Shown here: positions 8,215 through 61,445 of the stretch, in pieces
Numbering within the stretch: position 1 is the stretch's first letter
How the letters are laid out: every line of letters begins with the position of its first letter
Assembly (NCBI GenBank): GCA_009691765.1
Contig: SIAO01000004.1
Coordinates: 85,419-149,418, forward strand
DNA: 64,000 nt
Source of the DNA: Planctomycetota bacterium
Lineage (GTDB): Bacteria > Planctomycetota > GCA-002687715
Direction of reading: 5' to 3'
Notes under the pieces: model-generated
Database searches by the model: none
Told to the model about the DNA's origin: nothing
What the model saw: only the letters and a program-made list of their open reading frames with translations
Program-made: the position numbers and the translations under genes

Positions 8215-11200
8215 CTACCCCGCTGCGGTATCCCCGGATGTTTCCGTCGCTTCCGTCTTGGGCGGGCGCGCACGGCGTGCGGCCAATGCCGACTCGAGCG
8301 GTGCAACGTTGGGCAACTCAGCTTCAGTGGCACGCAAGTTGCCTTGCGCATCAATCTGCTCAATACGCACACTCACGCGGCGCGAGACTCCGCGTTCGGG
8401 CATGGTGACGCCGAAAAGTCGGTCAGCGTGTTCCATGGTGCGCTTGGCATGGCTCACCACGATGAACTGACTCTTTTCACGCCATTCCGCAACAAGGCGC
8501 ACAAAGCGCTCCGTGTTTTCTTCGTCCAACGCTGCATCGACTTCATCGAGGAAAGCGCAAGGCGCGGGATGCGCACGGAAAATCGCGAACAGCAACGCAA
8601 CGGCTGTCAACGAACGCTCGCCGCCCGAAAGCAAGCTAATGCTCTGGAGTTCCTTGCCTGGTGGCTTGGCGCGGATCTCAATGCCCGATTCCAGCGGAAG
8701 ATCAGGATTCTCAAGATTGATCTCAGCGCGTCCACCACCGAACAAGCGGCGGTAAACCACACTGAAGTGTTCACGCACTGCGTTGAACGTATCGAGGAAG
8801 AGTTGCGTGCTCTGCTCTTCGATGGACTTGAGCACACGGTAGAGGTGCTCTTTCGATTTCACCAAGTCATCACGCTCGCGCAAGATGAACTCTGAGCGTT
8901 GCTCCGCAGCCTCGAGTTCCTCGACAGCGGCGAGATTCACATTGCCCAAGCGTTGGATTCGCTCTTTGAGTTCGCGCACTTCATCTTCGAGCACCACATC
9001 CGCGGCTGCGGAATCCGCAACATCTGCTGCTGGAACTTGCTCCGCTTCTTGAAGCCGCCTTGCCTCCTGCAATTCGAAGTCTGCAAGGTCAATACCGAGG
9101 TCTTCGCGCACATGGGATTGCAACGCTGAAAGCGCCGCCTTATTGGCGCCTTCAGAGGCACGCACCTCAGCGATGCTCTCCGCCAAGTCACCGAGCCGCT
9201 TTTCTGCGACATCGAGTTCGACTGATGCAGCACGCATGCGCTCGCGCACACGATCAGCGCCATGCTCCACATCCGCGAGTCGTCCAGCAACGCCGCCAAG
9301 CGCGGCTTCGGCTCCAGCCAGCTCTTGCGTTTCCAGTTCAAGCGCAGCGCGAGTTCGCTGAATGGTGCGCCCCAACTCGCTTTCTTCCGCCGACGCCGCT
9401 ACAGCGCGATCTTCGGTGTCGCGAATGCCCGCCGCGAGGAAGACTTGGCGCGCGCGCGCGGCGTCCAACTTCTCAGCCAACTTGGCTGCTGCAAGCCGGA
9501 CTTCATGCACTTCATGTTGATTGCGATCCACTTCAAACGTCTGAGCCTGCTCACGCTCGCGAGCCGCTTCGAGGATTCCCTGCGCGGCTTGGCGACCTTC
9601 CAGCAAACGCACATGCTCGCCGCGAGCCGTTTCCAAGCGCAGTTCTGCAGCTTCGATGGCTTCACGCAAGCGCATGTCTTCCGTCAAAAGCAACTCGCGA
9701 TCCTGCGCGAGGCGCTCCATTTCATTCACCAAACGCACGACTTCTTGGTCCAGTCTTGCGGCGTCACCCTCGGCCTTCACGAGCGAAACCGACAGTTCAC
9801 GCACACGCAAGCGCGCTGCATCGCGTTGTGACAGCAAAGCGCTGCAGCGCAGTTTGGCGGCATCGCGCTCCTCTGCGAGGCTCGCAAGGCGCTTCTCCAA
9901 ACGACGCGCCTCAGCTTGGAGCGTTACCAAGCCCGCAGAAGCATGACCGCCACGTGGGGTGGACAACATGCGACCAGAGCGCAGCACATCGCCATCAGCA
10001 CTCACGAGCATGGCGCCCGAGTGCTTGCCGCTGCGCAACTCCGCTTCGAATTCATCCCGAGCAAGAACACGCACACCTGCAAGCAACGCGCTCAGCACAT
10101 TGCCAATGTCCCTATTTGCTGGACGCACACCAGCAGGCAATTCCGCTTGCGCATCTTGAAAGCGGTCGAGCGGCAAAAAGATTGCACCGCCCAAACGCTT
10201 CTCACGCAAGAAGCGCAATCCTTCGACGGCTTCAGCGCCATCCGCCACAACCAGCGCTTGAGCCGCATCACCCAAAGCCGCTTCGATGCCACGCGCATCT
10301 TGGAACTCGACTTCAAAAAGATTCAGCAGCAGGCCGCGGAAGCCCGGCAAGAATTCGGGACGACGTGCTCGCTCGGCAAGGATGGCAAGAGTGCCTTCGT
10401 TGAGCCCTTCGCCGCGCCGCAGCGTATTCGTGAGCACATCTTTGCGGGCCTGTGCTCTGCTCAAATCGCTATCGAGTCGACGCTGTTCTTCGAGCGCACG
10501 ACTGGTTTCCGTTTCAAGCCGTTCGACTTCCAGCTCTGCGCCCGTGAGCCCAGAGCGCCGCTCTTCGAGCACGCTGGTGTGCTCTCCTTGCGTGCCACTG
10601 CGTTCACCGAGGAGGCCCTTGCGCTGCTCCATGTCCGCGAGGACGCGTTGCAAACGCTCGGCGCCGGCACCGAGGTTGCGTTGTTGATTGCTCAATTCGA
10701 CTTCTGCGCGAGCTTCGTCAGCTCCTGCCGCGGAAATCCCCCGCTCGAGCCCACCCATATCCTTCTCGGCAGCGGTGCGGACTTGCAAACACTCAGCGGA
10801 CTCTTGACGCGCTTGCTGTAAACGCGCCATCTCGGCCGCGAGTTGCGTGGCTGTGCTCTGCACATCGCGGGCCAACACTTCCGCTTCACGGCGAATGACG
10901 ATTTCTTCTTCCGTGAGCTCCTCGACAGCCCGGCGTGCCTCGCTAGCGTCGTTGCGCCGCGTCTTCAAACGCGCATCAGCTTCTTCGGCGTAGCGCCGTT
11001 GCAGTGCAATGGTCTCGCGCAAACTCGACAAGCGTCCTGCAAGCGTGGCATGCTCTTCACGCGCGCCGGCCACTCGTTCTACAGTTGCTCCCAGTTCACC
11101 TTCAACTGTGGACGCCGACGCCTTCGCACTCTCGCGTTGCGCTTGAGCCGCATCGCGCAAGGCATACAGCTCGCCGAGTCGCGCCGCGATCCCAGCTTCT

Positions 11201-11922
11201 GCATTCGCAAGAGCTTTCAGTCGCGCGAGAGCAAAGCGGCCTTGCACTTGCTTCAAACGCTCGGTCAGTTCGCGGTAACTGCGCGCCTTGCCCGCATGGA
11301 GTTTGAGCGAGCGAATCTGGCGCGAGATTTCTTCCACGACATCGGCGAGGCGGGCGAGATTCTCGTCCACCTTTTGCAGCTTCAACTCGGTTTCATGACG
11401 GCGGGTACGGAAGCGCGAGATACCGGCGGCTTCTTCGAACACGCGTCGGCGGTCTTGCGGGTTGTTCGCGAGCACCGCGTCGATCTTGCCCTGCTCCATG
11501 AACGCATAGCCACCATTGCCAAGCCCAGTGCCGGCAAAGAGATCGCGCACATCTTTCAGTCGAACGGGCCGACCATTCAGCAAGTACTCCGTCTCGCCGG
11601 TGCGAAACACGCGGCGCGTCACTTGCACTTCATCGCTGTCCTCGCCCAAAACACGGTCGCTGTTTTGAAAGACAAGCGTGCCTTCGCACAGGCCCATAGG
11701 CGGGCGGCGCACGGTGCCGTTGAAGATGACGTCCGTCATCTCGCGGCCACGCAGTGATGTTGGGCGCTGCTCGCCGAGCACCCACTTCACGGCGTCGATC
11801 ACATTGGATTTGCCGCAACCATTGGGGCCCACGATGCATGTGAGTCCACCGCCTTCGAAGACGAACTCCGTTCGGTCGGCAAAAGACTTGAAGCCATGCA
11901 CGATCAACCGCTGCAGCCGCAT
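8215..11922 (-). CDS. smc: chromosome partition protein Smc
   Basis: 1235 aa. N-terminal GPNGCGKSN Walker A, long coiled coils, and a C-terminal LSGGE...DEVDAALD signature with Walker B. Confidence 0.95.
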   Translation of the reverse strand: MRLQRLIVHGFKSFADRTEFVFEGGGLTCIVGPNGCGKSNVIDAVKWVLGEQRPTSLRGREMTDVIFNGTVRRPPMGLCEGTLVFQNSDRVLGEDSDEVQVTRRVFRTGETEYLLNGRPVRLKDVRDLFAGTGLGNGGYAFMEQGKIDAVLANNPQDRRRVFEEAAGISRFRTRRHETELKLQKVDENLARLADVVEEISRQIRSLKLHAGKARSYRELTERLKQVQGRFALARLKALANAEAGIAARLGELYALRDAAQAQRESAKASASTVEGELGATVERVAGAREEHATLAGRLSSLRETIALQRRYAEEADARLKTRRNDASEARRAVEELTEEEIVIRREAEVLARDVQSTATQLAAEMARLQQARQESAECLQVRTAAEKDMGGLERGISAAGADEARAEVELSNQQRNLGAGAERLQRVLADMEQRKGLLGERSGTQGEHTSVLEERRSGLTGAELEVERLETETSRALEEQRRLDSDLSRAQARKDVLTNTLRRGEGLNEGTLAILAERARRPEFLPGFRGLLLNLFEVEFQDARGIEAALGDAAQALVVADGAEAVEGLRFLREKRLGGAIFLPLDRFQDAQAELPAGVRPANRDIGNVLSALLAGVRVLARDEFEAELRSGKHSGAMLVSADGDVLRSGRMLSTPRGGHASAGLVTLQAEARRLEKRLASLAEERDAAKLRCSALLSQRDAARLRVRELSVSLVKAEGDAARLDQEVVRLVNEMERLAQDRELLLTEDMRLREAIEAAELRLETARGEHVRLLEGRQAAQGILEAAREREQAQTFEVDRNQHEVHEVRLAAAKLAEKLDAARARQVFLAAGIRDTEDRAVAASAEESELGRTIQRTRAALELETQELAGAEAALGGVAGRLADVEHGADRVRERMRAASVELDVAEKRLGDLAESIAEVRASEGANKAALSALQSHVREDLGIDLADFELQEARRLQEAEQVPAADVADSAAADVVLEDEVRELKERIQRLGNVNLAAVEELEAAEQRSEFILRERDDLVKSKEHLYRVLKSIEEQSTQLFLDTFNAVREHFSVVYRRLFGGGRAEINLENPDLPLESGIEIRAKPPGKELQSISLLSGGERSLTAVALLFAIFRAHPAPCAFLDEVDAALDEENTERFVRLVAEWREKSQFIVVSHAKRTMEHADRLFGVTMPERGVSRRVSVRIEQIDAQGNLRATEAELPNVAPLESALAARRARPPKTEATETSGDTAAG

Positions 11923-12010
11923 CGCAACACCCCATCGGGTGGCAGGGCCTTAGCCAAGGCCACTGCATTTACCCGCCCGGTGGGAGCATAGCCCCTCGCC
12001 TGCTGATTTC

Positions 12011-13783
12011 CTATCCGTGAGACTGCGCGCGGAACAGGTCGCCTTGCACCTCCAGAACGCCAGATTCCGGAGCCGGAAAGCAGACACTTTCGAGGCGCGT
12101 TCGGCTGCGTAACTGGCGCAGCATTGCAGGGATGCCTTGAGGCGGTAGCAGAGCTGCGGGCAACGGAATCGGTCCCAACATGCGCTCGCTCAGCTTCGAA
12201 GCGAGAAGCTCTCGGTTGCCACTTCCGAACAAGGGGATCTCCACGGGCAGCAAAGCTTGCGCTCCGGCAGCATGCTCCGAACTGGCTTCGAGAAAGCGGC
12301 GGCGCTGTGCGCTGTCCACCCAAAACCCGACGCGCCGCGGACGCGGTGCAGCATCGCTCGCGGCGTAGTCGAGATGGCCAAGCAAACGTGCCGCGAGACG
12401 CGGATGGTCTTGGCTGCGACCGGCACCCGCACTGACGAGCCGACTGAGCGCCGCGCCAAGACCCCAAATGCTGACATGCGTTTCTTCGTTCAGAGGCACG
12501 TCAAGACCAGTGGCTTCGTGGAGCGCGGCTCGCACGCTGGCTCCGTCCACGAGACCGCAGCGCTCCGCTTCAGCGGTGTGCACCAATCCGGCAGCCTTGC
12601 TCATGACAACATCGGCCTGCTCTGGTCCAGCAACACCTTCGAGCAGCACTGGGAGATTGAGCGCAACTTCGAGCAAAGCACTGCGCCGCTGCGTCAAAGC
12701 GTTGCGCAAGCGCACACTGTCGCCAGCGCTCACGATTTGACTCAAGAGAGCTGCTTCCTCGGCGTCCGGAATGCCGTCTTGCAGATTCCACTCAACGCGA
12801 ATCCCTAACCCGGCCGCATGCGTACCGAGCGCGTCGTGATGACTGCGCAAAGGCGCCAGATCAATCTGCACCCAGGCCCCGGCCCCTGCGCGGCGCGCAT
12901 CAGCCACAGCTTCCACCAACGCATGAACCGCTTCGGCGCCATAGCGGCGGAGCAAGGCCTCAAACCCTGGAATCCACAGATTCGAGCGCACACATGGCAA
13001 GAGGATGCGCACCAAGCGCGCGAGAGCCGGCAAAGTGCAAGGCGCATCTTCTGCTGCCAAGCCGAGGAACGCTGGGCGGAAGGGATCGCCAATTCCCGGC
13101 AACGCGATCAAACGATTTTCGACAGCGGCCGCCACGGCCCCGGAGTGAATCTCTTGAAGCATGAGCCGCTCAAGGACTTCGTTGGCGATGGCGCGATCGC
13201 ACAGCGCAGCTTGGCCGCCGGAATCGCTACAGAGTTCGCCGAGGCGTCGCGGTGACAACGACACCGTCGCCGCAGAACGCAACGTCGTGCCGTCGAGCTT
13301 CATCAATCCTGTCGCGGCCAGTTCGGTGACAAGCCCAGATGGAACGCGCTCAATTCCGAGCCGCGCAAGATGACGCTCCACGCTTGCGACCAAATCTGTC
13401 ACAAGCAACTCGGGCAGGCCGGTGCGCCGCACGAGGCTTGCTGCAAGGCGCTGCCGCGACCAAGGGGCATCGCCTCCGGGCGCATGAATCAGCAGTTTTG
13501 AAAGCAGCGTGTCGCGCAGTTCCCGCGTTTCGACGAGGCGCGCAGCAGCGTCTTCGTGGCCCGTGGCCTGCAAGACCCGCACAAACATGTCATCCAAATC
13601 ATGTTCGGCGATATCGCCGGGTGGACGATTCAGCTCAAGATGGCGCAGCACCGCGCTGGCCAGTTCGCGAGCAAGAGCGCCGTCGCGCTCACCGCATTCG
13701 CAGAGCACGACCTCAAGGTCCAGCTCCAAACGCTGCAACAACAGCGGCTCGGTAGTGCCATCACGCCTTAGGACTCGGCGCAT
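12011..13783 (-). CDS. ATP-cone domain protein of unknown function
   Basis: N-terminal ~90 aa (VLRRDGTTEPLLLQRL...VRVL...ETRELRD) fits the ATP-cone pattern. The remaining ~500 aa is Ala/Leu/Arg-rich with no recognisable RNR or other domain. Start overlaps the nrdR stop by ~20 nt. Confidence 0.55.
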   Translation of the reverse strand: MRRVLRRDGTTEPLLLQRLELDLEVVLCECGERDGALARELASAVLRHLELNRPPGDIAEHDLDDMFVRVLQATGHEDAAARLVETRELRDTLLSKLLIHAPGGDAPWSRQRLAASLVRRTGLPELLVTDLVASVERHLARLGIERVPSGLVTELAATGLMKLDGTTLRSAATVSLSPRRLGELCSDSGGQAALCDRAIANEVLERLMLQEIHSGAVAAAVENRLIALPGIGDPFRPAFLGLAAEDAPCTLPALARLVRILLPCVRSNLWIPGFEALLRRYGAEAVHALVEAVADARRAGAGAWVQIDLAPLRSHHDALGTHAAGLGIRVEWNLQDGIPDAEEAALLSQIVSAGDSVRLRNALTQRRSALLEVALNLPVLLEGVAGPEQADVVMSKAAGLVHTAEAERCGLVDGASVRAALHEATGLDVPLNEETHVSIWGLGAALSRLVSAGAGRSQDHPRLAARLLGHLDYAASDAAPRPRRVGFWVDSAQRRRFLEASSEHAAGAQALLPVEIPLFGSGNRELLASKLSERMLGPIPLPAALLPPQGIPAMLRQLRSRTRLESVCFPAPESGVLEVQGDLFRAQSHG

Positions 13784-14243
13784 CGCCACCCTCCGCGCTG
13801 AGCATCTGCCGCAGCTCCACCATGAACTCCTTGCTGTCCTTGAATTCGCGGTAAACGGACGCGAAGCGCACATAGGCCACCTGATCGAGAGTGCGCAGCT
13901 CAGCCATCACGAAGTCACCGATGATGCGGCTTGAAACTTCAGTGCCAAACATCTCACTCACGCGCGCTTCGATGCGACTGGTGACTTCTTCAAGAGTCTC
14001 GGTGGACACAGGCCGCTTGTGGCAAGCCAGCAGCAGCCCACTCAGAATCTTCTGACGATCGAAAGGCACACGCGAACCATCCTTCTTCACCACACGCAGT
14101 GGCATCTCTTCGATGCGCTCGTACGTGGTGTAGCGTCGCGAGCAATCGAGACACTCACGCCGACGCCGAATGACAGCCTGCTCGTTGCACGCACGAGAAT
14201 CGATCACTTTGTCTTCAATAGCTTTGCAAAATGGGCAGCGCAT
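13761..14243 (-). CDS. nrdR: transcriptional repressor NrdR
   Basis: MRCPFC...CLDCSRRYTTYE zinc ribbon followed by an ATP cone, 160 aa. Confidence 0.9.
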   Translation of the reverse strand: MRCPFCKAIEDKVIDSRACNEQAVIRRRRECLDCSRRYTTYERIEEMPLRVVKKDGSRVPFDRQKILSGLLLACHKRPVSTETLEEVTSRIEARVSEMFGTEVSSRIIGDFVMAELRTLDQVAYVRFASVYREFKDSKEFMVELRQMLSAEGGDAPSPKA

Positions 14244-14289
14244 GGGCGGCTCCTCATATCACCGGACGCGCGAGTGCGTCAAGCGACAC

Positions 14290-15576
14290 TCATTTGCCGA
14301 TGCAGAAACCGCTGAAAATGCGATCAAGCAACGCCGTGGGCGCATCTCTGCCACTGAGCGTGCCTGACGCCGCGAGCGCAGCATGCAAGTCTGCTGCTAC
14401 GAGCTCGCCCGCCGCCTGCGTCACAAGTCCCGCTGCCGCAGTGCGCAACGCCACCGCAACTTGTGCACAAGCCTCAGCCTGCCGCACATTGAGCAAACCG
14501 ACGCGCGCGTCACCGTGCTCGAGGGCGTCCCGAATGGCCGCTCGCAACTCCGCGAGGCCTGTGCCGCTACTCCCACTCACATGCAGCCCTTCACCACCCG
14601 CCAGAAGATCGGCGTGGGTCCAGACTCTGAGTGAACGCGCCGTCAGAAGTGCCGCAGTCTGACCAGGTCGGCGCACCTCAAGAAACAAGTCTGCTGTCGA
14701 TTCCAAGCGGCGGCGCGCAGCATGCGCTGCAAGATCCGCGACACTTTCACCAACATCGTCGCCTGCAGTGTCGACCAGCGTGATGGCGCTGCCTGCGCAA
14801 TCCAGATCCGCATGCACCGGATCGCGCGTCGTCCCTACTTCGGCCGAAACGAGAGCACGGCTGTGTCCAAGTAGAGCATTGAACAGTGTGGATTTTCCAG
14901 CGTTCGCCGGGCCGCGGAGCAAGACCAGGCGACGCGCCGCACCCGCCGTTGCCACAGTGCCTTGCGCCGCCAACGCTTCGATTTGCTGCGCGGCTTGCTC
15001 CAAACGCGCCACAGCATCCTCTGGCAATGGAATGGCCACATCTTGATCCGAGAAATCAAACCCCAGTTCCAACGGAATCAGGACATGATGCACCGCGGAT
15101 TCCAAAGCAAGGAGACGCTGACCGAGGCCGCCTGCGAGCATGGCCATGGCGGCGCAGCGCTCCGCTTCACCCTCGGCCGCAGTGAGCATGGCCACAGCTT
15201 CGGCTTGACTCAAATCGAGCTTGCCGTTGCTGAAAGCGCGGCGTGTGAACTCGCCAGGCTGCGCGAGTTCCACATTCTGCTCCAGCAACTGGCGCAGGAG
15301 TGTGGCCACGAGCAACGCTGAACCCGGCACATGCAACTCAGCGCAATCTTCACCTGTAGCGCTGCGCGGCGCGAGCCGTAGCCACAGCGTGCACGGCACA
15401 GAAAGAGAATCGAAGTGCAACTCACCTTCGTAGAGACCCGCCGCTTGCACTGGCTTGGCCGCCACGAAAATAGACTGCACTGCTGCAAGCGCTGCGGGCC
15501 CGCTCAGGCGCACGATGCTGCGCGCTGCCGGGCCGCGAGCGCTGGCCACCGCCACAATCGTGCGGCCCGCGGTCAT
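14290..15576 (-). CDS. mnmE: tRNA modification GTPase MnmE
   Basis: G domain GPANAGKSTLFNAL with DTAG, and the C-terminal CIGK hallmark. Confidence 0.9.
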   Translation of the reverse strand: MTAGRTIVAVASARGPAARSIVRLSGPAALAAVQSIFVAAKPVQAAGLYEGELHFDSLSVPCTLWLRLAPRSATGEDCAELHVPGSALLVATLLRQLLEQNVELAQPGEFTRRAFSNGKLDLSQAEAVAMLTAAEGEAERCAAMAMLAGGLGQRLLALESAVHHVLIPLELGFDFSDQDVAIPLPEDAVARLEQAAQQIEALAAQGTVATAGAARRLVLLRGPANAGKSTLFNALLGHSRALVSAEVGTTRDPVHADLDCAGSAITLVDTAGDDVGESVADLAAHAARRRLESTADLFLEVRRPGQTAALLTARSLRVWTHADLLAGGEGLHVSGSSGTGLAELRAAIRDALEHGDARVGLLNVRQAEACAQVAVALRTAAAGLVTQAAGELVAADLHAALAASGTLSGRDAPTALLDRIFSGFCIGK

Positions 15577-15579
15577 CGC

Positions 15580-17382
15580 TTAACTCGCTGCGTTTGTACG
15601 CAGCTTGCGGATGATGCGACTCTCGACGATGCCGATCGTGCTGCTCACCAGCCAATAGAGCGACAAGCCTGCGGCGTAGCCATACATCATGAACCCGAAG
15701 AGGATCGGCATGAACAGCATCATCTTGCGCTGCTGTTCCATTTGCGGATCAGTGCTCGCCGGCTTCGGCATCAGATACGAGTTCAGGAACCAAGCGATGG
15801 TCATAAGGATTGGCAGCAGGTGCAGACCCGTCAGGGCCGGAGCGCCACCCATGCACGCGCCGCAACCGGGGATCGCTCCGCAGAGCGACAGCGGATTGGA
15901 CACTGCTTCAGCAAAGCGAATCAGATGATCGGGTTGCGACAAATCCGCCACCCAGAACCACGAAGCTTGACGCAGATCGATGGAAGCGCGAAGCGCGGCA
16001 AACAACCCGAAGAAGATCGGAATCTGCAGCAACATCGGCAAGCAGCCACCGAGCGGCACCAGCTTCACCTTCTCCGCGCGCATCAACTTCATTTGCTCGG
16101 CGGCAAACAGGCGTCCGTCTTTTTCGTGCAGCTTGCGCAGCGCGTCCAACTTGGGCTTCAAGCGCGCCATGCCTTCCTGATGGCGAGCCATGGCGTCTTG
16201 CGAGCGACGATTCACAGGGAACAACACAAGACGCACACACAGCGTCAACAAGATGATCGCGAGACCCCAGTTGCCTCCGACGCTGTGGCAGACGTCGAGC
16301 ATCCACAGCACTGCGCGCCCGACCAAGCGAGCCCAACCGAGTTGATCGGTGTAGATCGAAGTGAGCGCAGCGGCGTCTTCAGCCTGCCCCGGAAAATCCG
16401 CCACGATGATCTTGGCATCGAGCGGGCCAAGGTAGAGCACGGCTTCATACACCGTTGCGGGCTGGCCGCACTGAGCGCGCGCTCCAAAACCCAATGAAGA
16501 GGATGTGCGCAGCTCCGTAGCACCACCGTCGCCACGATCGCCAGGCGGCATGGCGTGCACGATGGCCTCAACGGGGCCGGGAAAGTTCGTCAACAACAGC
16601 ACCGCGCCGAAGTAGTTCGACAGATCGGCCGTGAAGCGTCGCGTGCCTCCGAGTGGGATTCTCGATCCGCGATTGTCCTCGCCCGCCTCCTGTGCCGTGA
16701 CGATGCGCAATGCGTTGTCAACGCTGCGCAACACCGCGCGCGAAGGCGACATAGCCGAACCACCGAGCTCTTGGAACACGCCACGAGTGACTGTCAGAGT
16801 GAGTTCTGGTGACAGCACCGCATTCTCTGCGCCCCGTGCTTCGACACTGATGCGCACCGTCGCGTGACGCGTGTCTCCAGGCGGCAAGCTCACTTCCTTG
16901 CGCAGCACCAACGACGCACCGGAGCGTTCGACCGTGCGCTCCAGCTTGACGGTGCGACCATCGACACTGCGGCTCATAGTCCACGGTGTGCCGGCACCAA
17001 GATCGTCTTTCTTCTCTTCGTTCAGTTCGAGTGCGCCCGTGCCGTCTGCTTGTGCCGTCCACAACGGCAACGTGGTTTTCCCGTCACCAGCGTTCGGGTG
17101 ATAGTCCTTCAACTCTGCGGACTTGAGCAAACCACCCGCATTGGTGAACACCAAGCGCAGCCGGTCGTTCTCAAGCACCTCTTCGCGCACATCCTCAGGA
17201 CGAAGCGCCGTCACCAGCGGTTTCGCAGGCGTCGGCGTCGCCTCAACAGGTTTCTGTTCCACGGGAGTCTGAGCCGCAGGCTTGGGATTCGGTGCAGGCT
17301 CGGCTTGGTCGCTGAATGCCCACTGCCAACCGAACAACACAACGAGGCTCAGGACGAGCGCGAGCAGGAATCGCTTTTCCAT
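15580..17382 (-). CDS. yidC: membrane protein insertase YidC
   Basis: N-terminal TM, a large periplasmic domain, and a conserved C-terminal five-TM core (GCLPMLLQIPIFFGLF). Confidence 0.9.
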   Translation of the reverse strand: MEKRFLLALVLSLVVLFGWQWAFSDQAEPAPNPKPAAQTPVEQKPVEATPTPAKPLVTALRPEDVREEVLENDRLRLVFTNAGGLLKSAELKDYHPNAGDGKTTLPLWTAQADGTGALELNEEKKDDLGAGTPWTMSRSVDGRTVKLERTVERSGASLVLRKEVSLPPGDTRHATVRISVEARGAENAVLSPELTLTVTRGVFQELGGSAMSPSRAVLRSVDNALRIVTAQEAGEDNRGSRIPLGGTRRFTADLSNYFGAVLLLTNFPGPVEAIVHAMPPGDRGDGGATELRTSSSLGFGARAQCGQPATVYEAVLYLGPLDAKIIVADFPGQAEDAAALTSIYTDQLGWARLVGRAVLWMLDVCHSVGGNWGLAIILLTLCVRLVLFPVNRRSQDAMARHQEGMARLKPKLDALRKLHEKDGRLFAAEQMKLMRAEKVKLVPLGGCLPMLLQIPIFFGLFAALRASIDLRQASWFWVADLSQPDHLIRFAEAVSNPLSLCGAIPGCGACMGGAPALTGLHLLPILMTIAWFLNSYLMPKPASTDPQMEQQRKMMLFMPILFGFMMYGYAAGLSLYWLVSSTIGIVESRIIRKLRTNAAS

Positions 17383-17384
17383 AG

Positions 17385-18134
17385 CTATTGCCCAACCTGG
17401 AGGCGCTTGGCGAGAAAGTCATCGAGCTCGGCCACAGCGCGGATTTTCTTCATCGTGGTCTGATAGTCGTACGCCACACGGCGAAACTGCATCCGATCAC
17501 CATCTAAGAGAACATAGCAGGCGGTGTTTTGACCGTCCCGCGGTTGTCCAACACTTCCGACATTCACGAGCGTCTTCTCAAGCGGCAGCGTGAACCAACC
17601 GTCGAACTCCGATTGGTGCGCAAAGGTGAAGCCTTCACGAATCACGCCCGGCACGTGAGTATGCCCACCGAAGGCCACGCGTCCGTCGAAACTGCGAAAC
17701 ACGGCGGCCATCTCCGTCATGTTCAAGGAGTCCTTCGGCAGGATGTACTCCTCGATTGGCGAACGCGGCGATGCATGCACGAAGAGCTGCTCGCCTTCTT
17801 GGCGACTGTGCAACATGCGCTCGATGCGGTCCCACAGCGCATAGTTGGCCTCCCGCGAAAAGGCCTTCGAGTTGAGCTCGCACCGTGTCCAGTCGAGCGC
17901 CTTGCGCGCGCGCGGATTGAATTTCAAAGCCCCGTCTTGCAGTCCCTGCTCGTGGTTGCCGAGCAACACGAAATCGCAGCGATCCATCAGTTCGAGGGTC
18001 TCACGCGGATTAGGCCCATACCCGATGACATCGCCCAAACACACCGTGCGTTGCACGGGGAATGCGGCACTGTCTGCGAAGACGGCAGTCAGCGCTTCGA
18101 GATTGGAGTGAAGGTCGCTGATGATGGCCAGCAT
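17385..18134 (-). CDS. metallophosphoesterase (calcineurin-like, YfcE/MJ0936 family)
   Basis: Motifs DLHSN, GDVIGYGP, GNHE and GHTH. Confidence 0.75.
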   Translation of the reverse strand: MLAIISDLHSNLEALTAVFADSAAFPVQRTVCLGDVIGYGPNPRETLELMDRCDFVLLGNHEQGLQDGALKFNPRARKALDWTRCELNSKAFSREANYALWDRIERMLHSRQEGEQLFVHASPRSPIEEYILPKDSLNMTEMAAVFRSFDGRVAFGGHTHVPGVIREGFTFAHQSEFDGWFTLPLEKTLVNVGSVGQPRDGQNTACYVLLDGDRMQFRRVAYDYQTTMKKIRAVAELDDFLAKRLQVGQ

Positions 18135-18149
18135 TGGTGGAGCCGAGGT

Positions 18150-18644
18150 TTAGCAAGCTCCTGCACGCTGCACCACCACGCCTTCTATACGCAAGAGCTC
18201 TACTTTGAGGCTTGTGCCACGCGGACTACTGAAGCCGCCGAGCTTCCCGCCGCTCGCAAGAACCCTGTGACAAGGCACAATCAGCGGCCATGGATTCGTG
18301 CGCATCACTTGGCCCACGGCACGTGCCGCCGCAGGCGAACCGGCCCGTTCCGCCAACTCGGCATAGCTGAGCGTTTTCCCTCGTGGCACCTTGCGCAACG
18401 CAAGCAGAACGCGCCGTTGAAAGTCGCGGAGGTTTTCATCCGCCAACGTGATCTTGGCAGCCGCAGGATCCACCAGACCACCCTTTGCGTAGTCCTGCAA
18501 CAGACTCGCTAACTTGGCGCAACCCGCTACCGCTGGACCTTCCAGCGCCTGCCCCGGCAAACCAACACGCGAGAGTCGCTCACCTTCCCACTTCAAGGAA
18601 AACTCGCCGAGTGCCGTCGAGACGCGTTGGATGCCTTGTTGCAT
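18150..18644 (-). CDS. ogt: methylated-DNA--protein-cysteine methyltransferase
   Basis: PCHRV active-site Cys motif. Internal ATG start at 18644; the ORF track extends to 18710. Confidence 0.8.
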   Translation of the reverse strand: MQQGIQRVSTALGEFSLKWEGERLSRVGLPGQALEGPAVAGCAKLASLLQDYAKGGLVDPAAAKITLADENLRDFQRRVLLALRKVPRGKTLSYAELAERAGSPAAARAVGQVMRTNPWPLIVPCHRVLASGGKLGGFSSPRGTSLKVELLRIEGVVVQRAGAC

Positions 18645-43997: not shown

Positions 43998-44972
43998 ATG
44001 CTCTCGCTCGTGAAGCACGCCGCTGAGTATTTACGCCATCTCGAACACGCGCGTGGCGCTTCGGAACTCACGGTCAGCGCCTACGCACGCGACCTCGCGC
44101 AACTTTCACAAGTGCACGGCGGACAAGCGTGTGACCCCACGCGACTGACCACAGCGAACTTGAAAGCGCACGTCGTGGCTTTGCTCGGACGCGGCTTGGG
44201 ACGCGCGTCCGTGGCCAGACATGTTTCCTCTATCCGCGGTTTGTATCGCTGGTTGTTGGCGAGTGGCAAAGTCACTGCCGATCCAACAACCGCAATCCGC
44301 GTGCCGCGCCCTCGCCGCGCTTTGCCACGCGCGCTGTCGAATACAGATTTGCAACGCCTGCTTGCCGCTCCCGTGGGAGAAAACTTCGTCGACACTCGCG
44401 ACCGGGCGGTGCTGGAAGTGCTCTACAGCTCTGGAATGCGTGTGGCCGAACTCGCGGGGCTGGAACTCGAAGCCATTGATTCCAGCGGCGGAATCGTGCG
44501 AGTCCTTGGCAAGGGTCGCAAAGAACGCTTGTGCTTTCTTGGAAGCCACGCACTGGAAGCGCTTGAAGCATGGTGGCCCTTACGCAAATCCATGTGCCGC
44601 GGCCGCGAGCGCCAACGCGTGTTCTTGAACCGCCTTGGAACGCCGCTCACGGATCGTAGTGTGCGGCGCATTCTTGAGCGCTGCATTCGGCGCGCTGGCA
44701 TGCCGCGCGGCATCTCACCGCACACGCTGCGCCACACTTTCGCGACGCATTTACTGCTGGCAGGTGCCGGGCTGAAAGAAGTGCAAGAAATGCTGGGCCA
44801 CCGCCAGCTCTCCAGCACGCAGATCTACACACACGTCACGCCATCACATTTGAAAACGGTGTATGAGGCAGCGCACCCGCGAGCAAAACTCAGTCGGAAG
44901 CTTCTTCGTGGTGGCGCAGATACCACGCCAGCATCGTCCCGACGCAACGCTCGCACCAAGAGTGCTCCGTAA
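43998..44972 (+). CDS. xerC: tyrosine recombinase XerC/XerD
   Basis: R...HxxR...Y catalytic tetrad (HTLRHTFATHLL...IYTHV) and an N-terminal SAM-like domain. The track ORF starts at 43971. Confidence 0.8.
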   Translation: MLSLVKHAAEYLRHLEHARGASELTVSAYARDLAQLSQVHGGQACDPTRLTTANLKAHVVALLGRGLGRASVARHVSSIRGLYRWLLASGKVTADPTTAIRVPRPRRALPRALSNTDLQRLLAAPVGENFVDTRDRAVLEVLYSSGMRVAELAGLELEAIDSSGGIVRVLGKGRKERLCFLGSHALEALEAWWPLRKSMCRGRERQRVFLNRLGTPLTDRSVRRILERCIRRAGMPRGISPHTLRHTFATHLLLAGAGLKEVQEMLGHRQLSSTQIYTHVTPSHLKTVYEAAHPRAKLSRKLLRGGADTTPASSRRNARTKSAP

Positions 44973-47151
44973 TCAGGCGCGTGCCGAAAGCCGTTGCGGC
45001 CTCGCGGCGCTCCTTGTCTAATTCTTGGCCTGTGCCCATGAGCACCTGCATGGAGTCGCGCACCAATTGCAAAACTTTCGACTCGCGTTCGCGATAGAAG
45101 CTGCGTTCCAGAGCACGGAACTGAACTTGGAATAGCTCGCGCAGCACCAGCGGTGCCTCGGGGTTGCCAAGGCGGAAAGCAGCAATGCGCCGAATGATGT
45201 TGCTGCGAAACTCCTCAGCGCCGCTGCTGACACCCATGAGGCGTTCAACATCTTCCATCAGGCGCCGGTCCGGCTGACGCGCCTCACGAGTCCGTGGGTC
45301 GGCCACGCTCTCGCCAGTGCCGAAAGCTTTAATTTCGCGGATCCAATCGGCGAAGAGGCGATCCGCTTCGCGCTCGTCCACCAATTGCGATGCACTGCGT
45401 AATTCGCGAGAGAGTGCACGGATAAGCTCCTCGCGCGCCGTGGTAATAAACGCCTCAGACTGACCATAGGCGCCATTCGCAGGCACACGCAAGAAGGCAT
45501 AGAGCGTCGGATCGCTGAGCAAGCGTGGTAGTGCCTCCAGCAAATCCATAGGCAGAATGCACTCGCCGTGTTTCTCCACCGCTACTTCCGAAAGCAAGTT
45601 CAGCATTTCGCGCGGCGAAGCACCGCAGCGGCCTTCGTACGCCGCTTCAACGCATTCTTCGAACTCATCTTCGGCTCCGTCCCATTCAGTCGCTATGACC
45701 TCTGCTGACTCGCGCAGTAATTGCTGTTCCTGCTCGTCGAGATTGTCCGGCAGCGTGCCATCTTCGTAGAAGCGTGCCTTCTCGATGGGCGCGAGTTTGC
45801 GCACCACTTTGGCCAGCACACCTTCGTAGGCCGCCACATCTGGACGACGCAATCGTGTGAGCACCGCGAATAACGCTGTGACCATAGACGCGTGCGGCGC
45901 CACATGACTGCTGCGCGCCACGGATGCCAAATGGCGCTCGTAGATTTGCGCTTCGTCGGACCAGCGTCGCAAATACGGCACGCGCACGAATTCCATGCGC
46001 CCCTTGAAACTTGGGAAACTCGGATCGCGCTTGAAGGCCGCGAGGTACTTCTCGTCGGAGGTCCCGACGAACAAGAGATCCAGTGCCACCGTCATGGAGG
46101 GCAAGTTCACAAAACCGCGCTCGACGGTGGTCAGCAGATACTTGTTCGCTTCCAAGGCGCGCTTCAAGAAATCGCTGTATTCCGCCACGCCGTGATTGGC
46201 ATCGACCAAGTCGCCGTGCGCTTCGTGCATCTCCTCGTGTGAGAGCACCGCGGGCAGCCCCTCCATCGATGCGTGCGTAAGCATGCGCGTGCCAGCGTCC
46301 ACGGTTGTCTGCGGTTCGATGGTCACCGCGCCAGTGCGGTAGCGATGCGAGATGTAATAACGCTCTACGCGCACATGGCGCAGCACTTGGCGCCAATCGC
46401 CTTTGTAACTGCGCAACAAAGCCTCATAGAGCACCTTATTCTTGGGCGACAATTCACCTTTCAAGAGCAACTCGCTCGGCACATAGCGTGCGCGATCTTC
46501 TTCCGTGGCTGCTTCGAGTGCCTCATTGATGATCTCGACGCGCCGCTTCTTGGGGATGAGCAACCATGGCGGGTCTTTCATCTCGCAAGGCAGGCGACTG
46601 CTAATCAAGCGGTCATCCATGTTTGCGAGAGAGCTGTCCTCTGCGGCACTGAGCTTGCCGCCGAATCCAAGCTCTCCCTTGTCGCCGCGTTCGCAAAAAA
46701 CCCACGAGAAACGAAATAGCGGGCAGGCTTCGTCGCGGCTGTAGGCTTCAAGCCCAGAGCGGATGCAGTCAACAAGGCTGCTCTTCGAAGCGCCATTGGG
46801 GCCATGCAGCAACACGAAGCGGTCACAGCGCCCGCGCTCCGCAAAGCCCGAGATCACTTCATAAATGCGGTTCTGCACCGGCTCTTGACCAAAGACTTGA
46901 GCTGCGCCATCTCCGCCTGGGTCATCGAACAGCATGAAGCGCCGTTGCTTGCCACCCAGCCCATCCACTTCGTAGGCGCCGTAATGCTCGAACATGTCGC
47001 GCAGCACTTGGTGCACATTGCGTGTGAGCGTGTACGGCCGCAGCAGTAAGAGCTCGAGGTACTCCTCGAAAGAGAGCTGCACACGCTTGGCGGCGAAGGC
47101 TTCCTTCGACATTTGCGCGATGCGCTCGATGGTCTTGTCAGCTTGCATAGC
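44890..47151 (-). CDS. prkA: PrkA-family serine protein kinase (AAA-like)
   Basis: MQADKTIERIAQMSKEAFAAKRVQLSFEEYL and LLHGPNGASKSS are colinear with YeaG/PrkA. Confidence 0.85.
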   Translation of the reverse strand, partial: AMQADKTIERIAQMSKEAFAAKRVQLSFEEYLELLLLRPYTLTRNVHQVLRDMFEHYGAYEVDGLGGKQRRFMLFDDPGGDGAAQVFGQEPVQNRIYEVISGFAERGRCDRFVLLHGPNGASKSSLVDCIRSGLEAYSRDEACPLFRFSWVFCERGDKGELGFGGKLSAAEDSSLANMDDRLISSRLPCEMKDPPWLLIPKKRRVEIINEALEAATEEDRARYVPSELLLKGELSPKNKVLYEALLRSYKGDWRQVLRHVRVERYYISHRYRTGAVTIEPQTTVDAGTRMLTHASMEGLPAVLSHEEMHEAHGDLVDANHGVAEYSDFLKRALEANKYLLTTVERGFVNLPSMTVALDLLFVGTSDEKYLAAFKRDPSFPSFKGRMEFVRVPYLRRWSDEAQIYERHLASVARSSHVAPHASMVTALFAVLTRLRRPDVAAYEGVLAKVVRKLAPIEKARFYEDGTLPDNLDEQEQQLLRESAEVIATEWDGAEDEFEECVEAAYEGRCGASPREMLNLLSEVAVEKHGECILPMDLLEALPRLLSDPTLYAFLRVPANGAYGQSEAFITTAREELIRALSRELRSASQLVDEREADRLFADWIREIKAFGTGESVADPRTREARQPDRRLMEDVERLMGVSSGAEEFRSNIIRRIAAFRLGNPEAPLVLRELFQVQFRALERSFYRERESKVLQLVRDSMQVLMGTGQELDKERREAATAFGTRLITEHSWCERCVGTMLAWYLRHHEEASD

Positions 47152-47518
47152 GCAGCCCTCATCAAGCAGATACGCAGCCGCAACCCGAGCGAACAGACGC
47201 AACCTGCCGTGGTGGACTTATCGGCGCGGCGGGGTGGGTTTGCAGTAGAAAAACAATTTCCGCTCACACCTATTTGGGCTGCCATAACTCAAAGCTGCGA
47301 GACCGGTTGGGAACCCCGACTTTGCCCTGCACCCAAGATTCGGGTGAGTGAAACCCCGTCTCATTGGTCACAAGATGCCTCACCAAGCCACTCTCCAAGG
47401 CGGTGTTGGTCATCGTGGTGTATTGCGCCTGAAAACACCGACGAATAGCAGTAGCGAGTCGGCGACCAGTTTCACTGAAACAGAACCAACGCCGCCAGTC
47501 GATACCCGCATTCCGCCA

Positions 47519-60016: not shown

Positions 60017-61348
60017 TCAATTCTCTGGGCCGCCATCTGCGGCATTCTCAAAGCGCAGGCGCGCAGGGAAAAACTGCAATTCCACCTTGCCGGTTGGGCC
60101 GTTGCGGTGCTTAGCCACAAGAACTTCCGTCAAGCTGCCTTCGTTGCTCGGCGTGAGATCGCCTTTGTAATAGTCCTCGCGGTACAGAAACATGATCACG
60201 TCTGCATCCTGCTCAATAGCGCCAGATTCGCGCAAGTCAGACAAGCGCGGGCGGTGATCTTCGCGGCTATCCACAGCGCGATTCAACTGAGACAGCGCGA
60301 CGACACAGCACTTCAACTCGCGCGCAAGTTCTTTCAGCCCGCGCGAAATCTGCGCGATTTCCTGTTGGCGATTCTCTGCCGCTGGAGGCGGCGCCACCAT
60401 TTGCAAGTAATCCACGATCAAGAGGTCGAGGCCTCCCAGTTGACGCGCAAGCCGCCGTGCCTTGGTGCGGATGCCCATCGGCGTCAACGCCGCCGATGCG
60501 TCCACGTGGAAGCGTGCGCTGCCCAAGCGTGATGCCGCATCGGAGAGCTTGGCCCAATCGCGTTCAGACAGCGTGCCCTTGTTGATGCGTGTGGCTTCAA
60601 CGCGCGCTTGAGCGCACACCAAATTCTGCACGATCTGCTCTTCTGAAACTTCGAGCGAGATGAACAACGCTCGAGTCTTCTGCTCGGCGAGACACGCGTT
60701 CAACGCAATGTTCAAAGCAAACGTGGTCTTACCCATGCTGGGACGCGCCGCGATGACCACGAGGTCGCCACGCTGCAATCCGTTGGTCATGGCGTTCAGC
60801 TTGTAATAGCCCGTGTCCACGCCGGTCACCGCACCGCGACTCTCGGAGAGTTTCTCAATGCGATCGAATGTGCTTTGCAGCAATTCACCGACGTGAAAAG
60901 TGCCCTTGGCGTTTTCGTTTTCGCCGATGGCGAAGACGCGCGCTTCCGCATCGTCAAGAATCTCCGTGACTGGCGCAGACGAGCTCAAGGCTTGCTGGCG
61001 CACATGATCGCCAATCTCCGCCAACTGCCGCCGCAGAGATTTTTCACGAACGATCTTTGCGTAATGTGGCGCGTGCAGCGCTGAAGGCAAAAGCTCGAGC
61101 AATTGGCCAAGGAACGGACGTCCGCCCATCGCGGCCAAGCGGCCTTGCGATTCGAGCTCGGCAGCCAAAGTGACGGCGTCGAGCGGCACACTACGCGCGT
61201 GCAAATCCACGATGACCCGAAAGAGCACTGCGTGATTTTCGTGGAAGAAATCGTCGGCAGTGATGATGCTGAGCACATCATCGAGCATCTTGGGGTCGAT
61301 GAGTACCGCACCGAGAACGCTCATCTCGGCGTCGACACTCTGCGGCAT
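60017..61348 (-). CDS. dnaB: replicative DNA helicase
   Basis: DnaB N-terminal domain, Walker A GKT and RecA-like C-terminal domain; no intein. Start MPQSVDAEMSVLGAVL. Confidence 0.9.
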   Translation of the reverse strand: MPQSVDAEMSVLGAVLIDPKMLDDVLSIITADDFFHENHAVLFRVIVDLHARSVPLDAVTLAAELESQGRLAAMGGRPFLGQLLELLPSALHAPHYAKIVREKSLRRQLAEIGDHVRQQALSSSAPVTEILDDAEARVFAIGENENAKGTFHVGELLQSTFDRIEKLSESRGAVTGVDTGYYKLNAMTNGLQRGDLVVIAARPSMGKTTFALNIALNACLAEQKTRALFISLEVSEEQIVQNLVCAQARVEATRINKGTLSERDWAKLSDAASRLGSARFHVDASAALTPMGIRTKARRLARQLGGLDLLIVDYLQMVAPPPAAENRQQEIAQISRGLKELARELKCCVVALSQLNRAVDSREDHRPRLSDLRESGAIEQDADVIMFLYREDYYKGDLTPSNEGSLTEVLVAKHRNGPTGKVELQFFPARLRFENAADGGPEN

Positions 61349-61445
61349 GACAACTTTGAGCGCGTCTTCCGCCACGCAACCCCTCCCAGAGTGCACACAC
61401 TCTGCGGAGCCGAGTTACTGGCCCCGCAGGCTGTTTTCCAACCCG

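Follow-up and report, generated by a model that had tools for sequence, protein, structure and literature searches.

A probable catalytically dead paralog of class III ribonucleotide reductase, encoded in overlap with nrdR in Planctomycetota, is a candidate accessory subunit of the NrdR repressor

NrdR, a repressor of ribonucleotide reductase (RNR) genes that joins a zinc ribbon to an ATP-cone, is regarded as a self-sufficient sensor of ATP and dATP and has been studied as an antibacterial target. ATP-cones are homotypic, nucleotide-dependent oligomerization modules. Those of NrdR dimerize, and nucleotide-dependent oligomers decide whether the repressor binds DNA (PMC9110341). Cones also drive the assembly of RNRs themselves: in Leeuwenhoekiella blandensis NrdB (PDB: 5olk) and in the Prevotella copri NrdD tetramers (PDB: 8p28), a mobile cone mediates nucleotide-dependent contacts. 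A 64,000-nucleotide (nt) stretch of DNA from a Planctomycetota bacterium (contig SIAO01000004.1, hereafter the window) carries, in overlap with nrdR, a gene for a second ATP-cone protein of 590 amino acids (aa), here called gene X, with X as its product. X is very probably a dead paralog of NrdD, the catalytic subunit of the class III (anaerobic) RNR. The nrdR-X pair is best seen as the descendant of an ordinary nrdR-nrdD operon in which the enzyme has died and yet been retained, and not as the source of a wholly new protein or fold; an operon with nrdR is plausible as the ancestral arrangement of an NrdD-type gene.

The homology of X to NrdD is visible only through profile chaining and hhalign comparison. 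At NCBI, X is listed as a hypothetical protein from a metagenome-assembled Planctomycetes genome, and a cluster look-up likewise returned "hypothetical protein". X itself has no match to PF13597 or to any NCBIfam model, falls below every curated NrdD cut-off, and found nothing in PADLOC or PHROGs. A word-indexed protein search recovered only X itself, one relative at 66% identity and later one more, probably because of the Ala/Leu/Arg-rich composition of the protein, and searches of PDB sequences with one or two sequences gave nothing useful. An exhaustive profile hidden Markov model (HMM) search of 1.84 billion cluster representatives yielded 169 hits (E ≤ 1e-3). About 26 of the hits group with X in a clade, at 26-39% identity and with a length of 660-690 aa in most cases, in which all named genomes are Planctomycetota. 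The clade is marked by the motifs HxxGRxHxHGL, GRVALNLP, ERxWxQR, WGLxxAL and AARxLxxLDY, followed by VRRRF, LPVxxPLxxxNxxLL, ERLGxGLxLP and a terminal FEVQEELF; the sub-clade of the window is shorter (590 versus about 670 aa).

The distant long relatives supply the bridge to NrdD. An ATP-cone is present in all 64 of them and the Pfam NRDD domain in 37 (E ≤ 1e-3). They match the TIGR02487 NrdD model at 1e-15 to 1e-40, with alignments that end near model position 485 of 581 and scores of 15-139 bits against a cut-off of 326. When their own profile is used as the query, genuine anaerobic reductases are recovered at about 1e-60. NrdD, as represented by PF13597, TIGR02487 and the structures 9d3x, 4u3e, 8p23 and 1h79, is among the known systems closest to X. 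Aligned by hhalign with the cones removed, the X-family core matched 40 genuine NrdD cores with an E value of 7.2e-6 and a probability of 84% over 430 colinear columns, and the alignment stopped exactly at the start of the NrdD zinc ribbon. This core-to-core comparison succeeded only against NrdDs of the CCRL type; when the whole X family was set against E. coli/phage-type NrdD, only the ATP-cone aligned.

A structural model of X was generated with AlphaFold from a 24-sequence alignment and reached a predicted local distance difference test (pLDDT) score of 82.5; a model from a 2-sequence alignment (pLDDT 47) was not usable. In a Foldseek search of solved structures, the class III reductase 9d3x ranked first (E 3e-12), followed by the NrdDs of P. 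copri, Thermotoga maritima and phage T4. X has the ten-stranded alpha/beta barrel fold of RNRs and glycyl-radical enzymes. The initial annotation, made from the sequence alone, had implied that the C-terminal ~500 aa were unrelated to RNR and had named an RNR fold in this region as the finding that would speak against it; a class III RNR fold is what the structural and profile comparisons returned. Besides the barrel, X has in common with NrdD an N-terminal ATP-cone, a finger loop and an NLP motif (N376, L377 and P378, nearly invariant in the family). An AHxxGxxHxHxL motif is present in most of the X family, and the order of the elements is colinear with that of NrdD over about 430 columns.

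The ATP-cone proposed for the first ~90 aa holds up, at a modest score that is nevertheless above threshold: residues 3-91 match PF03477 with 30.6 bits (gathering cut-off 25.8; E 5e-7) over profile positions 2-87 of 88, align with the NrdD cone by hhalign at a probability of 95%, and keep the basic hairpin residues R6, R7 and R18. Searched against PDB sequences, the 24-sequence profile gave cone matches and sub-threshold NrdD motif matches only, and the best PDB sequence match of the X-family cone was 5olk (E 7.5e-5). Residues 98-165 probably form a second, degenerate ATP-cone. In the relatives P0021, P0041 and P0100, models of 2-phosphoglycerate kinase match the equivalent region with their ATP-cone (P0021: E 3e-5). 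Because the direct alignment with the first cone is weak, though colinear (E 0.004, probability 9%), the second cone is termed only probable.

The catalytic apparatus of NrdD is gone from this scaffold. In genuine NrdD the finger loop reads SPMGCRSF (E. coli type) or SMCCRLRLD and lies about 28 residues before the NLP motif; in X it reads DSVRLRN, with CCRL replaced by SVRL, the clade has [VI]RR, and the radical cysteine pair is lost. In the alignment of 24 family members, cysteine occurs in at most 3 sequences of any column, and the 663-aa protein P0009 lacks it entirely. The CxxC pairs of the Zn(Cys)4 site are absent from the X clade and nearly so from 150 relatives. None of these 150 has the RxxGY motif of the glycyl-radical domain, none extends to the zinc and glycyl-radical part of the enzyme, and none aligns past about position 600 of 702 of the NrdD HMM. 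The absence of this domain rests on HMM coverage and on the hhalign end points and not on pattern matching alone, the first glycyl-radical pattern having also missed many sequences annotated as NrdD. G581 in the VQGDLF of the X tail was considered as a degenerate glycyl-radical glycine and rejected, most relatives having Glu at this position. The NrdD substrate-region motifs EATPAE, YYTNS and GGT are replaced in the X family by its own conserved motifs, and no radical S-adenosylmethionine (radical-SAM)/NrdG gene occurs in the flanks of the window locus, L001, L014, L016, L017 or L018. The earlier statement that X lacks a glycyl-radical motif, a zinc ribbon and RNR catalytic motifs was thus borne out by motif, cysteine-column and finger-loop checks. 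As judged from these features, X has none of the equipment for radical chemistry: with no thiyl-radical cysteine, Zn-Cys4 site or glycyl-radical domain, it cannot work as an NrdD.

These features vary among distant relatives and database proteins annotated as NrdD. P0100, P0135 and P0024, which have no glycyl-radical domain, keep the radical cysteine in a PGCRRG or PACRSG finger loop, which suggests that the catalytic features were lost stepwise. P0185 (Thermodesulfatator indicus, 690 aa) and similar proteins are annotated as anaerobic RNR and have both a CCRL finger loop and a CPxHGY zinc ribbon; they end soon after the ribbon without RxxGY, whereas P0179 continues to SRIVGYY. Ends of the P0185 type could stem from genes that are split, from recoding or from miscalled termini. 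P0157 (742 aa, FCB group bacterium) has neither the glycyl-radical motif nor any CxxC in its last 150 residues, and its NCBI annotation as anaerobic ribonucleoside-triphosphate reductase is likely an over-annotation.

Loss of catalysis has not been accompanied by decay of the gene. Between the window and L001, X has a ratio of nonsynonymous to synonymous substitution rates (dN/dS) of 0.16, and mnmE and nrdR have ratios of 0.12 and 0.08, values that are approximate as dS is near saturation, and X open reading frames (ORFs) remain intact down to 26% identity. X is under purifying selection.

X is made from the same mRNA as NrdR through overlapping, Shine-Dalgarno-coupled translation. The product of the upstream gene is a canonical NrdR, which scores 183.4 bits against TIGR00244 (above the equivalog cut-off of 124.65), 67.4 bits against the Zn_ribbon_NrdR family PF22811 and 84 bits against PF03477. 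The mechanical ORF of X spans 12011-13873; the ATG at 13783, which agrees with the relatives and with called genes, was chosen as the start. From this ATG on, X overlaps nrdR by 23 nt, up to the last base of the nrdR stop codon (TGA, 13761-13763). A GGAGGG Shine-Dalgarno sequence precedes the ATG at a spacing of 5 nt, and the nrdR stop is embedded in the stretch of X that encodes its conserved RRDG motif. Coordinates and junction agree with the coupling by overlap that had been read from the sequence at the outset. L001 has the same GGAGGGTGGCG-ATG as the window, and similar overlaps are found in L001, L003, L004, L007 and L016.

Genomic neighborhood analysis extends this coupling well beyond the window. 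In the X clade, nrdR lies directly upstream of X in all nine loci with upstream sequence (the window, L001, L003, L004, L005, L007, L026, L027 and L029) and usually overlaps its start. Among the distant NrdD-like proteins that have no glycyl-radical domain, the same holds for four of five (L014/15, L016, L018 and L019; not L017), and these keep nrdR upstream despite differing other neighbors, and in a genome of 37% GC. The arrangement recurs in independent genomes whose X proteins have diverged to 26-30% identity, and is therefore more than chance. The initial annotation had proposed a check of neighborhood conservation; the nrdR-X pair is conserved across Planctomycetota and beyond.

A further set of relatives shows which part of X recurs. 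Forty-five of the 150 representatives are proteins of only 175-215 aa, encoded by complete genes, that consist of two ATP-cone-like units alone. In all five loci looked up for these cone-only relatives, nrdR is again directly upstream, with junctions that are overlaps of 4 or 8 nt or a 64-nt gap. With GC contents between 0.49 and 0.68, these loci must come from more than a single lineage. The recurring element is nrdR with a co-translated second ATP-cone protein, to which the dead barrel is optional. The cone-only relatives show the same coupling to nrdR, which suggests that the cones do the work and that the barrel is a scaffold.

The C-terminal tail of X is a second conserved feature of the system. 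The last 17 residues (574-590) have pLDDT below 50, are predicted to be disordered, and sit where NrdD has its zinc ribbon and glycyl-radical domain. They include LEVQGDLF (family consensus FEVQEELF), in which Q580 and F584 are invariant across 24 sequences and E578 and L583 (L/M) nearly so, after a variable linker. A Qxx[LM]F motif occurs within the terminal 25 residues of 26/26 clade members, as against 0/119 sequences from the NrdD-type profile. In four of the five cone-only systems it is NrdR itself that has an extended C-terminal tail with GQ[QK][DNQ]LF (APGQQDLFNE, IPGQQNLFDGG..., DPDGQKDLFDQ and VAGQQQLFQDE); this GQxxLF tail is absent from the NrdR of L025 and from 11/11 NrdRs paired with a long partner. 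P0040 (L017, 6001-8283; 760 aa), an NrdD-like protein that has no glycyl-radical domain and no adjacent nrdR, has QGDLF and EGLFD close to the N-terminus (MSTPSRQGDLFDADPPGGEGLFDAQ...), which shows that either end of a protein can carry the motif. The Q-x-x-L-F motif belongs to the NrdR system and not to one subunit. The variable C-terminal part of NrdR has been described as "of unknown function" (PMC9110341).

The tail is a short, disordered terminal peptide with an invariant Q in position 1, L or M in position 4, F in position 5 and an acidic residue in position 3, and it resembles the motif by which polymerases, Hda and MutS bind the beta sliding clamp. Binding through this clamp motif, Q-phi-x-L-F, depends mostly on positions 1, 4 and 5 and is aided by an acidic residue in position 3 (bioRxiv 10.64898/2026.05.27.728225). 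The X tail fits this scheme with Q at 1, L at 4 and F at 5 in a flexible terminal peptide. It differs at position 2, which is Glu or Gly in X and Gln or Lys in the NrdR tails instead of an aliphatic residue, and the MutL peptide QEMIVP, with Glu at that position, did not bind clamps (bioRxiv 10.64898/2026.05.27.728225). A transcription factor that uses the clamp has been reported in MuC of phage Mu (PMC12867686). A link between NrdR and the clamp was not found in the literature searched, of which coverage was incomplete, so that this is absence of evidence only. Clamp binding by the Q-x-x-L-F tail is a tentative proposal from motif likeness, and on balance an unlikely one.

Table 1. Features of the nrdR-X locus in the window and of the cone-only loci (coordinates of the L loci are those of the respective locus).
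Feature	Position	Strand	Basis
yidC, upstream of mnmE	15580-17382	minus	Pfam
mnmE, upstream of nrdR	14290-15576	minus	Pfam
nrdR, 160 aa, zinc ribbon and ATP-cone repressor of RNR genes	13761-14243	minus
gene X, 590 aa, probable catalytically dead class III RNR (NrdD) paralog with ATP-cone(s)	12011-13783	minus
smc	8215-11922	minus	Pfam SMC_N and SMC_hinge on the same gene
nrdR/X overlap, 23 nt, including the nrdR TGA stop	13761-13783	minus	direct sequence reading
GGAGGG Shine-Dalgarno sequence for X, within the nrdR 3' end	13789-13794	minus	direct reading
X ATP-cone 1, residues 3-91, basic VLRRDG hairpin kept	13511-13777	minus	PF03477
X probable second, degenerate ATP-cone, residues 98-165, beta-hairpin then helices	13289-13492	minus	model secondary structure
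X RNR/glycyl-radical-enzyme alpha/beta barrel core, residues ~190-573	12065-13216	minus
X finger-loop remnant and NLP motif, GDSVRLRNALTQRRSALLEVALNLP	12650-12724	minus	translation, comparison with genuine NrdD
X C-terminal short linear motif LEVQGDLF in disordered tail	12032-12055	minus	translation, 24-sequence conservation
Cone-only gene, L020	135-713
Cone-only gene, L021	5001-5600
Cone-only gene, L023	4001-4591
Cone-only gene, L024	1758-2399
Cone-only gene, L025	1673-2308
NrdR with GQxxLF tail, L020	2-142
NrdR with GQxxLF tail, L021	4484-5008
NrdR with GQxxLF tail, L023	3442-3936
NrdR with GQxxLF tail, L024	1265-1765

The pair sits within a wider conserved neighborhood. In the window, yidC, mnmE, nrdR, X and smc are five consecutive genes on the minus strand. 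The mnmE-nrdR gap is only 46 nt, so co-transcription is possible, and X and smc are separated by 88 nt on the same strand. Downstream of X, smc follows in all 11 clade loci with downstream sequence and also in L014 and L016, and yidC and mnmE are syntenic in L001, L003, L004, L007, L014, L027 and L029. The order metallophosphoesterase-yidC-mnmE-nrdR-X-smc (8215-18134 in the window) is kept in L003, L004, L007, L014, L027 and L029 and spans Planctomycetota genomes whose X proteins are less than 30% identical; in L016, yidC and mnmE are inverted and nrdR-X-smc is intact. Promoter and terminator scans returned no more than chance level. The sole sigma-70-like match in 11500-18500 (13921-13948, minus strand, TTGGCA-16-CATCAT) falls within nrdR, some 140 nt before the X start, a count at chance level (1 found, 0.7 expected). 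The window also holds dnaB, for the replicative helicase (60017-61396), and a prkA-type AAA kinase gene (44890-47202), both on the minus strand; prkA is also found near the nrdR locus in L014.

Taken together, we consider it somewhat probable that X is a non-enzymatic, nucleotide-responsive accessory subunit, or partner, of the NrdR repressor. Among the functions that had been suggested for X at the outset, a degenerate RNR-derived regulator and an NrdR partner are the ones favored here, and we infer a partner or antagonist role from the conserved gene coupling. NrdR activity is set by ATP/dATP-dependent oligomers formed cone to cone (PMC9110341), and on this ground the cone or cones of X would co-assemble with the NrdR cone. 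Since the cones are the sole part common to all nrdR-coupled partners, it is through them that X would work. Such co-assembly would shift the balance between DNA-binding and non-binding NrdR assemblies and so modulate nrd repression, with X as a co-repressor or an anti-repressor and its barrel as a scaffold. More speculatively, the X tail might dock onto the cone of its partner or tether a further component. The beta sliding clamp is one candidate, and a link to it would tie control of the deoxynucleoside triphosphate (dNTP) supply to ongoing replication. A broader view is that in a sizeable set of bacteria NrdR is one half of a two-subunit nucleotide sensor, whose other half is a pair of ATP-cones that may or may not carry a dead NrdD barrel, and in which a clamp motif on either subunit would wire RNR-gene repression to how many clamps are loaded on DNA; this view appears doubtful at present.

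X differs from each of the systems it resembles. Unlike NrdD, it has no radical cysteines, Zn-Cys4 ribbon, glycyl-radical domain or adjacent activase, and it has substrate-region motifs of its own and a Q-x-x-L-F tail in place of the radical domain. Unlike NrdR, it has no zinc ribbon and hence no evident DNA-binding domain, is four times larger and contains an RNR barrel. In the cone-driven RNR assemblies the cone regulates its own enzyme, whereas the carrier of the X cone is enzymatically dead and its presumed target is a transcription factor. A glycyl-radical-less NrdD paralog beside nrdR is not described in the literature searched, the incomplete coverage of which makes this absence of evidence only.

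A number of observations weigh against X as a partner of NrdR. Gene coupling shows co-expression, not complex formation. The X cone exceeds the Pfam cut-off by only 4.8 bits and has substitutions at several canonical positions (K-R to R-R, P-F to P-L and K-I to R-L), so that nucleotide binding by this predicted cone is no more than plausible. Within the sub-clade to which the window protein belongs, the AHxxGxxHxHGL motif of NrdD has degenerated to VENRLIALPGI. The 64-kb window contains no NrdR box (acaCwAtATaTwGtgt, up to 3 mismatches) and no RNR gene, which places the nrd genes outside it. The sample consists almost wholly of metagenome-assembled genomes. Finally, smc downstream of X is as conserved in Planctomycetota as nrdR upstream, and X could serve chromosome biology instead.

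This last point leads to the alternative that survives best, which is possible if unlikely: X would be independent of NrdR, an ATP/dATP-sensing scaffold whose tail brings it to the beta clamp or the SMC machinery; the shared transcript would reflect a common expression program. The constant position of smc and the likeness of the tail to the clamp-binding motif suit such a replication or chromosome role, and P0040, which carries QGDLF at its N-terminus and is unlinked to nrdR, suits independence from NrdR. Against a chromosome role, L018 and L019 have rsgA downstream instead of smc and still have nrdR directly upstream. The placement of the motif on NrdR itself in the cone-only systems ties it to the NrdR system, and an overlap of start and stop is more typically found between genes whose products are subunits in a fixed ratio than between genes that are merely co-regulated.

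In class I RNRs the beta subunit binds alpha by way of an acidic C-terminal peptide that ends in an aromatic residue, and FEVQEELF loosely resembles such a tail. It is conceivable, if improbable, that X acts on an RNR enzyme directly, by forming inactive hetero-oligomers with a genuine RNR, cone to cone or across the dimer interface, or by letting its acidic-aromatic tail compete with the class I beta tail for alpha. Two reports describe inhibitory RNR oligomers driven by ATP-cones (PMC5794259, PMC11226230), in keeping with the first of these routes. However, the invariant residue of the X tail is Gln, which is no feature of beta-subunit tails, the motif of the cone-only systems lies on NrdR and is followed by up to 11 residues, and neither the window nor the fetched flanks contain an RNR gene.

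It is still less probable that X is a functionless relic of nrdD that persists only through its overlap with nrdR within an essential operon. The loss of all catalytic features, the shortening of the window's sub-clade with loss of further NrdD motifs, and the cone-only relatives as a conceivable end point of decay would all fit a relic. Yet dN/dS for X is like that of mnmE, its ORFs are intact at 26-30% identity, and a 23-nt overlap cannot constrain 1.7 kb. The conserved family-specific motifs ERxWxQR, WGLxxAL, AARxLxxLDY, VRRRF and FEVQEELF are gains, not remnants. The idea that X is still an RNR or another radical enzyme whose radical is supplied in trans by a separate glycyl-radical or cofactor subunit, to which the kept barrel and NLP motif, the PGCRRG finger loop of a few distant relatives and possible split arrangements of the P0185 kind lend some color, is hardly credible. 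All known RNRs need a thiyl-radical cysteine, yet none is conserved in the X family, and P0009 is free of cysteine. The family has also exchanged EATPAE, YYTNS and GGT for unrelated conserved motifs, and no activase or radical-SAM gene stands beside X in any locus.

The NrdD family and the NrdR system are both known; what the analysis points to as new is an unrecognized second subunit of NrdR, together with a candidate function for the NrdR tail. One practical consequence concerns genome annotation: X relatives are sometimes labeled automatically as anaerobic reductases (P0157 is an example), and a genome annotated in this way would be counted, wrongly, among those that have a class III RNR. 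If X is indeed a partner of NrdR, a co-translated second ATP-cone protein would be an unrecognized component of the repressor in some lineages, and the pair would offer a clear bacterial case of a pathway enzyme recycled into a sensor for the same pathway. The complementary placement of the motif, on X or else on an NrdR that has a cone-only partner, gives a testable hypothesis for the function of the NrdR tail. Were the two-subunit, clamp-wired form of NrdR to prove real, it would parallel, in bacteria, the way in which eukaryotes couple the control of RNR inhibitors to the clamp.

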